DNA of 64,000 nt from Pseudomonadota bacterium (GTDB taxonomy: Bacteria > Myxococcota_A > Polyangia > JAAYKL01). A model generated the notes under the pieces. That model was given only the letters and a program-made list of their open reading frames with translations. It made no database searches and had not been told where the DNA came from. The translations under genes and the position numbers were made by a program. Positions 19,219 through 20,969 of this stretch are shown here, piece after piece (position 1 is the first letter of the stretch; each line of letters begins with the position of its first letter). The DNA is taken from positions 126,343 through 190,342 of the forward strand of contig JALNZK010000002.1 in assembly GCA_023229365.1 (NCBI GenBank), given 5' to 3'.

Positions 19219-20253
19219 TCAATACATCAAAATTTTTAAATGCTTAAAAATCCACACGGCCTTTTTGACATTTTCAAACATCCAGGGCTCTGTTTTCTTG
19301 ATTAAACCAGAACCACTACCAGTTGACGATCCTCCCAGCAATCCACAAAACAGTCCTGCCAAACCAAGTTTTTGTGCGGCAAGAGCGTTGACTGCAACTC
19401 CTTCTGCACCGCCCGCACCACCATATGTAGGACTTAATTTTGCGTGAGGAGAAACCAAATTCACATAATTGGGAAACACACTCAAAAGAATAGATTTCAA
19501 GTTGAGAGACTTGTCCTTGTATATATCTTGAAACCCATCATTGCCAAATTGAAAATTGTCCCAATCCTTCCAATATGGAACTAAAAGAACCCAATTCTCA
19601 CCACCTAACAACATGCGTTCTTTTAATACTCGCAACAATTCTTTTCGGCACCAATCTTCTCTGGTCAATCCTGATGTTACCCAATTATATGTGGCATTTA
19701 TATCATACCACCAAGGGGAATCTTTTATGCCCATAAATTGATAAAAATAAGGCGATGGAAAAAAATATTCCCCCCAACAACCCAAGCTGCCAACAGTAAT
19801 AGCATGTTTAAAAGTATTCTTTACTACCCCAATATAATTTTGCGTATAGCTCTCAGCCTGGGCATGCCAATAACTAAAAAACCTATTGACTAATCTCAGC
19901 CCCAATTCATTCCCCCAAGGGAAAAATTGCTCATTTAAATCTTTTAATGCAGGGTTATAACTTGCCAACGCTTTCGAGAAATCATTGCCCTGTCCATATT
20001 GATTGAGCAAATACCAAGAAGGGTCTGCCCATAGAGGTGTGCCCACCGGAGTGTGGACATACATTTTAACACCATTAGCCCTGGCTAAGTCTTCTGCTTC
20101 TAACAATCTGTCAAAATTATATTTGCCAGGAAATGGCTCTGTTTCCCACCAATAATTATAATACCACACTGCTTCGATTTCACATTCGGCAAACCTTGCA
20201 AAATCATCCTTGCCATAATCTGTGCTATTGTATCCTAAAACTATGACGCTCAT
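19219..20253 (-). CDS. putative glycoside hydrolase-like (TIM-barrel) protein with a Gly-rich C-terminal tail
   Basis: W/Y-rich motifs; start set at the ATG overlapping the upstream stop (TAATG). Confidence 0.4.
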   Translation of the reverse strand: MSVIVLGYNSTDYGKDDFARFAECEIEAVWYYNYWWETEPFPGKYNFDRLLEAEDLARANGVKMYVHTPVGTPLWADPSWYLLNQYGQGNDFSKALASYNPALKDLNEQFFPWGNELGLRLVNRFFSYWHAQAESYTQNYIGVVKNTFKHAITVGSLGCWGEYFFPSPYFYQFMGIKDSPWWYDINATYNWVTSGLTREDWCRKELLRVLKERMLLGGENWVLLVPYWKDWDNFQFGNDGFQDIYKDKSLNLKSILLSVFPNYVNLVSPHAKLSPTYGGAGGAEGVAVNALAAQKLGLAGLFCGLLGGSSTGSGSGLIKKTEPWMFENVKKAVWIFKHLKILMY

Positions 20254-20969
20254 TATTGTTCCCAGTAAGGCTTGTCTAAGACAGGGTTTTTCTTTGTGTT
20301 TTCCACATACCAACCCCCGTCAGACTTCTCCAAACAAGCCTCAGCCAATAAATTCAAAACATCCTGGGGGGCATAGCCTCTTTCACGATAATCCTTAATC
20401 TTGAAATTGCCCCTGGTCTTCGACATATCGGAAAGGTCTTGACCATCTCGTTGAATTAATTTAGGTATATAACATAGCTTTGGAGGAACAAACCCCAACA
20501 ATCGACAGAAGTAATAATAAAGACTGGATTCCGATACTAAGTCCTCTCCACGAATAATTATATTACATCCCTCACGATGATCTTGCACAACCTTGATGGC
20601 TGTGATTAGGGGAATAAATGGGTAGGGCCTATCCTCATTTCTGACAAAGGGGCGAGACCATTTAATTCCATCATCCTTTTCCAACCCAGGAACACCAGAC
20701 AAATATTGCAGATTTGTTTCATGCTCTTTAGCAGTATGAGAATACAAATCAACTTTCATACCCATCCAAGAAAACTCTTCCTTTATGGTCTCACAAAATT
20801 CATTGACTTTATCTCTGCCCAAGGATTGCAACTCTGGAAAATCCAGATCATCAAACCTAACTATGAATCTGCCGCCCTCTCTGGCAGCGGTATGATAGTT
20901 TATCAATGCTAAATATAAATGCCCCAAGTGAAGTCTACCACTGGGGGTTGGACTAAATCTTGTTGTCAT
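20253..20969 (-). CDS. class I aminoacyl-tRNA synthetase catalytic-domain paralog, glutamyl-Q tRNA(Asp) synthetase (GluQ-RS/YadB)-like
   Basis: RFSPTPSGRLHLGH (HIGH motif), VRFDDLD, IIRGEDL, DMSKT (KMSKS-like). Confidence 0.65.
   Translation of the reverse strand: MTTRFSPTPSGRLHLGHLYLALINYHTAAREGGRFIVRFDDLDFPELQSLGRDKVNEFCETIKEEFSWMGMKVDLYSHTAKEHETNLQYLSGVPGLEKDDGIKWSRPFVRNEDRPYPFIPLITAIKVVQDHREGCNIIIRGEDLVSESSLYYYFCRLLGFVPPKLCYIPKLIQRDGQDLSDMSKTRGNFKIKDYRERGYAPQDVLNLLAEACLEKSDGGWYVENTKKNPVLDKPYWEQ

Follow-up and report, generated by a model that had tools for sequence, protein, structure and literature searches.

A compact GluRS-like protein family beside a GH42-like barrel: a truncated synthetase paralogue with a probable non-tRNA acceptor in a huge-phage-like genome

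Introduction

What could a glutamyl-tRNA synthetase (GluRS) act upon once the parts that hold its tRNA have been lost? The question is raised by a 238-aa open reading frame (ORF), which we call mini-GluRS, in a 64,000-nucleotide stretch of contig JALNZK010000002.1 (positions 126,343 to 190,342; hereafter the window). The protein has a public record (MCK9458390.1, on a contig of 340 kb assigned to a proteobacterial metagenome-assembled genome (MAG)), where it is labelled 'glutamate--tRNA ligase family protein'. An earlier note, made from the letters of the window, had taken it for a truncated class I synthetase with the architecture of the glutamyl-queuosine tRNA(Asp) synthetase GluQRS (YadB), embedded in a prkA module and linked in theme to tRNA-repair genes, and had suggested as a second possibility that it aminoacylates a non-tRNA acceptor. 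Here we find that mini-GluRS belongs to a family of its own, that it is probably a truncated synthetase paralogue whose acceptor is something other than tRNA, and that GluQRS is the wrong label for it. Moreover, its gene is commonly paired with one for a barrel protein resembling glycoside hydrolase family 42 (GH42). We put forward tentatively, at a little under an even chance, that the two form a cassette in which mini-GluRS acts as a tRNA-independent glutamate ligase with a carbohydrate acceptor.

Results

The protein, whose N-terminus reads MTTRFSPTPSGRLHLGHLY, contains the HIGH motif as HLGH (residues 14-17) and a KMSKS-like DMSKT (residues 181-185). Pfam model PF00749, the Glu/Gln class I catalytic domain, matches it in two stretches (E=1.8e-23). 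Among solved structures in the PDB, GluRS chains gave the best matches (best E=2.3e-17), with YadB/GluQRS at E=4.8e-11, GlnRS weaker and TyrRS only at ~1e-3. An AlphaFold2 model built from 25 family sequences (predicted local distance difference test (pLDDT) 87.8, predicted template modelling score 0.86) shows the two Rossmann halves together with a short helical cap at the C-terminus. The top Foldseek matches of this model were all GluRS or GluQRS, with a template modelling score of about 0.74 on the query; GluQRS 4a91 stood at rank 10 and the better ranks were taken by GluRS. This identifies mini-GluRS as a class I catalytic core of the GluRS/GluQRS type; a better fit to another class I family was looked for and not found. 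The position and length of the ORF, both of its motifs and its description as a truncated class I core had thus been given correctly in the earlier note.

The reduction goes further than the loss of the anticodon-binding domains, which the same note had recognised. These domains are absent, since the chain ends 54 residues after Lys184, the KMSKS-equivalent lysine; nor was there any domain match to them. Between the Rossmann halves of GluRS and GluQRS stands an insertion that, in structures known from T. thermophilus and E. coli, is the acceptor-binding domain and carries the zinc site. Alignment to H. pylori GluRS (6b1p) sets query residues 2-90 against 13-95 in the first Rossmann half and 120-210 against 188-275 in the second, so that query 90-120 spans 95-188 of 6b1p and about 63 residues of the insertion have no counterpart. 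Against the GluQRS-like protein P0026, residues 95-127 stand in the place of residues 92-190, which carry C99-x-C101...C125. The stretch in mini-GluRS is a 32-aa linker lacking cysteine, and roughly 65-70 residues of the acceptor-binding insertion are missing relative to GluQRS; the equivalent stretch in GluRS and GluQRS is about 100 aa and carries the Zn site. In the AlphaFold2 model ~90-117 forms only a low-confidence linker. The same holds across an alignment of 157 full-length family members drawn from two database searches, in which the linker measures 19-65 aa and a CxC motif occurs in 0/157. The zinc-binding cysteine cluster to which the earlier note had drawn attention is therefore absent, as judged from alignments to both GluQRS-like proteins and GluRS.

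Comparison with curated models points the same way. The best NCBIfam matches were the GluQRS equivalogs NF004315 (89.7 bits, cut-off 250) and TIGR03838 (77.7 bits, cut-off 276.7), and the bacterial GluRS model gltX_bact scored 76.7 bits (cut-off 289.95); the GluQRS and GluRS hidden Markov models (HMMs) thus score mini-GluRS nearly equally. Membership of GluQRS was rejected on these scores, far below cut-off, and on the missing Zn/acceptor insertion. Membership of GluRS (gltX) was likewise rejected, on its score, on the absence of the acceptor-binding, stem-contact and anticodon-binding domains, and on a length of 238 rather than about 470 aa. What had been described as the architecture of GluQRS is shorter than GluQRS, has no acceptor-binding insertion, falls below the equivalog cut-offs and belongs to another family.

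That family was recovered in two ways. A word-indexed search returned 24 relatives of 230-260 aa with 39-53% identity to mini-GluRS, and the next matches, far weaker at E=1e-15, were GluQRS-like proteins, which align in two pieces only. An exhaustive profile search covering 1.8 billion representatives found 162 clusters (50% identity) at E<=1e-30, nearly all of them single-domain proteins of about 215-265 aa. Against the family HMM the scores of full-length members are about 170-395 bits, and those of true archaeal and bacterial GluRS met in these scans do not exceed 81 bits. We defined the family as single-domain proteins of 215-300 aa scoring >150 bits to this HMM; its signature motifs are NTRFNPTxNGxLHLGHLY, RFDD, T-A-V-K-V-x-x-D, IRGxDL and (D/E/S/T)-x-S-K-T. 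The window protein (P0001 of alignment A1) has the size, score and motifs of a member. By this clear gap in score, the mini-GluRS family is separate from GluRS and GluQRS. Among viral resources, its PHROGs matches were to families of function unknown only, IMG/VR yielded one mini-GluRS locus, a phage GenBank set contained no relative above 35% identity, and the BFVD viral structure library held full-length giant-virus synthetases and no mini form. A literature search returned nothing relevant on the family or on the pairing of a GluRS-like with a glycosyl-active protein.

Another short GluRS-like ORF was observed in the uncultured 635-kb huge phage LR745206 (285 aa, L109 8001-8858). It is phage-encoded and has a reduced middle region, as mini-GluRS does, and differs in its canonical PTYNF and KLSKR motifs; its score against the family HMM is only 48 bits, and no GH42-like gene lies next to it. 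From its sequence it looks like a separate lineage, in which GluRS was shortened independently, for a second time among huge phages.

The catalytic residues have been retained within this shortened frame. Alignment of the family profile to T. thermophilus GluRS (1j09/1g59) equates R4 with Arg5, D40 with Glu41, K126 with Asn191, D130 with Asp195, R140 with Arg205 and L144 with Trp209, and D181-M-S183-K184-T185 with K243-I-S-K246-R. Arg5, Asp195 and Arg205 of GluRS form a strictly conserved hydrogen-bond network that is the main recogniser of the substrate glutamate, while Tyr187 is dispensable, its place being taken by Met or Leu in many archaeal enzymes (PMC2978374). In the 157 members the triad is conserved at R4 (92%, the remainder mostly N-terminal gaps), D130 (99%) and R140 (91%), and the position equivalent to Tyr187 is Leu/Ile. 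The ATP site is also kept, contrary to what a pseudo-enzyme would show: H14 is conserved in 92%, G16 in 95% and H17 in 94% of members, and S183 and K184 in 94% and 97%. Because the residues of both the ATP and the glutamate site are conserved, mini-GluRS is very probably an active, glutamate-adenylating enzyme.

The gene downstream of mini-GluRS on the same strand, publicly labelled 'beta-galactosidase', encodes a (beta/alpha)8 barrel with the N-terminal signature of GH42. At 344 aa it is much shorter than GH42 enzymes (645-712 aa), and their trimerisation and C-terminal domains are absent. The stop codon of mini-GluRS and the start of the barrel gene overlap by one base in the sequence TAATG, which suggests translational coupling. 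This arrangement is not peculiar to the window. With locus ORFs called by a simple longest-ORF heuristic, the GH42-like gene adjoins mini-GluRS in 19/36 non-redundant loci and lies within 6 genes of it in 21/36; two further loci beyond the 36 show the same pairing. Both the adjacency and the one-base stop/start overlap recur in phage and bacterial genomes, at 35-53% identity. The public labels of the two genes are corrected by the present analysis.

Two variations on the pairing were observed. On a 228-kb contig carrying the paralogue P0005 (L001 8978-11760), GH42-like paralogues flank mini-GluRS on both sides, each 39% identical to the window partner (alignment A2); this contig also holds RNR, SbcCD-like, PNK-like and TyrRS-C-terminal genes together with tRNA-Leu and tRNA-Ser. 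Elsewhere (L004-L007, L029, L036-L038) a different neighbour, cluster c4, lies directly downstream of the family member, often with a radical SAM enzyme next. It has no Pfam match, and when tried as a divergent barrel it reached an hhalign probability of <1%, hence it is unrelated or its relation is undetectable. We consider that c4 may be an alternative partner of mini-GluRS.

Moreover, the wider neighbourhoods of the family are rich in genes of carbohydrate metabolism. At one locus the pair is surrounded by GT2 and Gly_transf_sug glycosyltransferases, a Methyltransf_24 protein and a radical SAM enzyme; at another, GT2, GT92, GT25, a dTDP-glucose 4,6-dehydratase and a dTDP-sugar isomerase lie directly 3′ of it. 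A Glyco_trans_1_2 gene directly precedes the pair at one locus, genes for GT17 and GT1/GT4 proteins occur among its neighbours, and a 515-aa GT2 gene overlaps the start of one family member. In one subgroup the order is barrel, mini-GluRS, CUT2-type ABC permease and periplasmic sugar-binding protein. P0146 is a single 475-aa ORF in which a GT17 glycosyltransferase (2-215) is fused to mini-GluRS (243-474), and here the permease gene follows. The complete chromosome of a Planctomicrobium and a MAG of Schlesneria have a short-chain dehydrogenase/reductase (SDR) gene, mini-GluRS and the GH42-like barrel among ordinary cellular genes. The pair was also found on a contig with a Mu-type portal and on huge-phage contigs, and another family member near an integrase; the cassette appears to move between phages and bacteria. 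No association with tRNA genes was seen, there being 3 in 27 loci, none of them specific for Asp or Glu and none nearer than 9 kb, and PADLOC gave no defence-system match for the pair.

Lastly, we considered the setting of the cassette in the window (Table 1). The best match of the window PrkA in the phage collection was that of the 595-kb uncultured huge phage LR756511, with 68% identity over 99% of its length; DUF444 and SpoVR of the same phage are 56% and 57% identical to those of the window (L110 12001-17452). In LR756511 the PrkA, DUF444 and SpoVR genes are contiguous, with a 576-nt gap, and synteny with the window extends to the HldE-like and Pol III alpha genes. The compared locus has no match to mini-GluRS, to its GH42-like neighbour or to the three small ORFs. 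Since the trio is contiguous there without it, the block that holds the cassette is read, by this comparison, as an insertion into the prkA module. PrkA was found near mini-GluRS in 0/36 other loci. The description of the gene as embedded in the prkA module is therefore right as to location, between prkA and DUF444/spoVR, and does not stand as to function: a functional link to PrkA/DUF444/SpoVR was rejected because the trio is intact without the cassette in LR756511 and PrkA is absent at the other loci. The position of mini-GluRS inside the module is incidental. Upstream of the family gene no neighbour cluster recurs broadly across the analysed loci, the 60-aa ORF of the window itself having not been individually searched.

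Table 1. Positions of the features of the window discussed in the text.
Feature	Position	Strand	Description
mini-GluRS	20253..20969	minus	238-aa GluRS-like Rossmann catalytic core, without connective peptide (CP)/Zn insertion and without anticodon-binding domain
GH42-like partner	19219..20253	minus	344 aa, (beta/alpha)8 barrel; start is the ATG at 20253; NCBI label 'beta-galactosidase'
TAATG junction	20251..20255	minus	mini-GluRS stop overlaps GH42-like start by one base
Block read as an insertion	19219-21873		~2.7 kb
60-aa small ORF	20969..21151	minus	hydrophobic; directly upstream of mini-GluRS, TAATG overlap
Two small ORFs	21151..21883	minus	167 aa and 79 aa; between 60-aa ORF and prkA
prkA	21873-23948	minus	upstream flank of the block
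DUF444 (YeaH-like)	17904-19172	minus	downstream flank of the block
spoVR	16293-17891	minus	third member of the prkA-DUF444-spoVR module (16293-23948)
tmRNA gene	6247-6591	minus	tag peptide ANDYVALAA (ARAGORN)
445-aa ORF	13410-14747	minus	PHP domain and first ~100/260 positions of Pol III alpha NTPase domain
HldE-like fusion	27042-28445	minus	PfkB sugar kinase and cytidylyltransferase-like, as in ADP-heptose synthesis; conserved in LR756511
Nucleotide-metabolism set	28596-29054, 30596-31591, 32613-33182, 38689-39609	minus	nucleoside 2-deoxyribosyltransferase-like, IMPDH/GMP reductase, DHFR, thymidylate synthase
AAA_33 kinase-like protein	30123-30611	minus	
Three DNA methyltransferases	33179-34030, 34438-35457, 41308-42066		
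Homing-endonuclease-like ORF	36665-37474	plus	opposite to neighbours; phrog_314, E=2.7e-40; close to the gene for thymidylate synthase
CCA-adding / poly(A) polymerase family protein	48758-49975	minus	
Amidoligase-like protein	60847-61809	minus	
UvsX-like recombinase fragment	63173-63976	minus	at window end

The window appears to be of phage origin, a view that draws on its synteny with LR756511 and its gene content and not on structural genes within it. More distant PrkA homologues occur in Thermus phages; the PrkA/DUF444/SpoVR trio is a module associated with stress and sporulation. The polymerase gene of the window looks split or truncated, and LR756511 matches the same 431 residues of this 445-aa ORF. 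Among the ~40 window ORFs scanned, the HldE-like gene is the only clear sugar-activation gene. For the proposed link between mini-GluRS and the tRNA-repair cargo, that is the CCA-adding enzyme and the AAA_33 kinase-like protein, we found no tie, nor are tRNA genes associated with the family.

Discussion

How might such a core work? From the conserved residues, mini-GluRS would bind ATP and L-glutamate and form glutamyl-AMP, and by analogy with GluQRS it is assumed to do so without tRNA. All modules that hold tRNA having been lost, the glutamyl group would then be passed to a non-tRNA nucleophile; that the acceptor is not tRNA we regard as likely. The nucleophile would belong to a carbohydrate, as a hydroxyl or amino group on a glycan, an amino sugar or a nucleotide-sugar, because the family has a conserved barrel partner, a fusion to GT17 and neighbourhoods of sugar genes. 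An amino-6-deoxyhexose would fit the dTDP-4-keto-6-deoxyhexose enzymes beside the pair in some loci. More speculatively, the barrel protein may supply the binding or processing of the sugar substrate. Chemistry of this kind has parallels: the GluRS family acylates sugar-like diols, namely the A76 ribose and, in GluQRS, the cyclopentenediol of queuosine, and the class I paralogue MshC ligates cysteine to GlcN-inositol. It is thus the secondary suggestion of the earlier note, aminoacylation of a non-tRNA acceptor, that the evidence favours, as a reading of architecture and gene context.

Several observations weigh against this proposal. In the catalytic core of the family, the first lysine of KMSKS has given way, in most cases to Asp, Glu, Ser or Thr. 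Within the pocket, position 126 is nearly fixed as Lys/Arg where GluRS has Asn191 or Val; together these changes may mean that substrate or kinetics differ from those of GluRS. Glutamate activation by GluRS normally requires tRNA. As to the partner, its model is of modest quality (pLDDT 62.6, built on 17 sequences), and its conserved E162, E219 and the glutamate of GAEG/vEAnY are not alignable to the GH42 catalytic glutamates, in a part where the model is of low confidence. Five non-redundant loci carry the unrelated, conserved ~255-aa c4 neighbour instead of the barrel. In the window itself no glycosyltransferase adjoins the pair, and the nearest sugar gene, the HldE-like one, is about 6 kb off. 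That the acceptor would be a carbohydrate is argued from gene neighbourhood and one fusion only.

Other acceptors have therefore to be weighed. mini-GluRS could activate an amino acid for transfer to a peptide, a small metabolite or a protein side chain, or serve as a non-catalytic scaffold, with the GH42-like gene co-transferred and mechanistically separate. Paralogues of aminoacyl-tRNA synthetases with diverse non-tRNA acceptors do exist, such as HisZ and YadB (PMC7373986), and the loss of the first KMSKS lysine and the five loci with c4 are in keeping with this view. However, the near-invariant HxGH, Ser-Lys and glutamate triad speak against a pseudo-enzyme, the adjacency to the barrel and its one-base overlap persist across divergent phage and bacterial genomes, and the GT17 fusion of P0146 points to sugar chemistry. 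We consider this explanation unlikely.

Alternatively, mini-GluRS may be an RNA modifier of the GluQRS type that tunes decoding during infection by glutamylating Q34 of tRNA-Asp or some other diol-bearing nucleoside, either of a tRNA or of the tmRNA. GluQRS too has no anticodon domain and activates glutamate without tRNA; the two GluQRS models are the best NCBIfam matches of mini-GluRS, GluQRS 4a91 is among its top fold matches, the glutamate and ATP sites that such an enzyme needs are conserved, and the window holds a tmRNA and a CCA-adding enzyme. Yet mini-GluRS scores 3-4 fold under the GluQRS equivalog cut-offs, a large score gap divides its family from GluQRS-like proteins, and the Cys/Zn insertion that GluQRS keeps is missing in 157/157 members. 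Its conserved neighbours are sugar enzymes and not RNA enzymes, the few tRNA genes at its loci are distant and of other specificities, and no queuosine-pathway gene occurs among the annotated neighbouring genes. Isoelectric point (pI) and net charge, taken as indicators of RNA binding, were uninformative (median pI 5.8 for the family against 6.0 for seven GluQRS-like proteins). On balance, a GluQRS-type role seems quite improbable.

A last alternative, in which glutamate is attached to a sugar-decorated or hydroxymethylated base to protect virion DNA from host nucleases, would agree with the glycosyltransferases, SAM methyltransferases, radical SAM enzyme and DNA methylases that adjoin members on phage contigs, with the nucleotide-metabolism and DNA methylase genes of the window and with the known hypermodification of DNA with glycans by phage glycosyltransferases (bioRxiv 10.1101/2023.12.21.572611), but it is very unlikely, given that the latter work mentions no synthetase-like enzyme, that the pair also sits in planctomycete chromosomes with SDR and ordinary cellular neighbours, that one subgroup lies beside a sugar ABC importer and that no gene for a 5-hydroxymethylcytosine/5-hydroxymethyluracil kinase, TET/5mYOX or aGPT-Pplase was found among the annotated neighbouring genes.

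Returning to the glutamate ligase with a carbohydrate acceptor, its nearest known relatives show both what is shared and what has been given up. GluQRS/YadB (1nzj, 4a91) is likewise a GluRS-derived core without an anticodon domain and with the HIGH motif, the Ser-Lys of KMSKS and the glutamate pocket; unlike mini-GluRS, it measures about 290-310 aa, has an acceptor-binding insertion of roughly 100 aa with C-x-C...C zinc in place of a 32-aa linker lacking these cysteines, and does not share its gene context of sugar enzymes rather than tRNA genes. With GluRS (T. thermophilus 1j09, H. pylori 6b1p) mini-GluRS shares the Rossmann fold, HxGH and the Arg5/Asp195/Arg205 network, and its Leu/Ile in place of Tyr187 agrees with many archaeal GluRS, whereas neither of the anticodon-binding domains, nor the acceptor-binding domain, nor the greater part of the stem-contact region is present. 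A chemical analogy is offered by MshC, a CysRS-like class I paralogue of mycothiol synthesis that forms an aminoacyl-adenylate and passes the amino acid to an amino sugar, as we propose for mini-GluRS. MshC belongs to the CysRS subfamily, is larger and keeps the CP region; it turned up in none of our searches, which showed no sequence relation to mini-GluRS beyond the class I fold. Lastly, the class I urzymes (TrpRS, LeuAC) are also cores without CP1 and without an anticodon-binding domain, and such cores are reported still to activate amino acids (PMC9026127; bioRxiv 10.1101/2025.04.05.647346). Urzymes are engineered and of about 120-130 aa, in contrast to mini-GluRS, which is natural, about 240 aa long and under purifying selection, and keeps both Rossmann halves.

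Truncated synthetase paralogues have each revealed unexpected chemistry, as with GluQRS, MshC and HisZ, and the mini-GluRS family is smaller than all three. It is possible, if rather doubtful, that a CP1-less core and a glycosidase-like barrel make up an undescribed system that glutamylates virion, cell-surface or nucleotide-sugar glycans in huge and smaller phages and in Planctomycetes, and that mini-GluRS is the smallest natural GluRS-type tRNA-independent activator. For the field concerned with the origin of synthetases, the family offers a natural counterpart to the engineered CP1-less cores. For glycobiology and phage biology, it provides a candidate enzyme for the attachment of an amino acid to a sugar.

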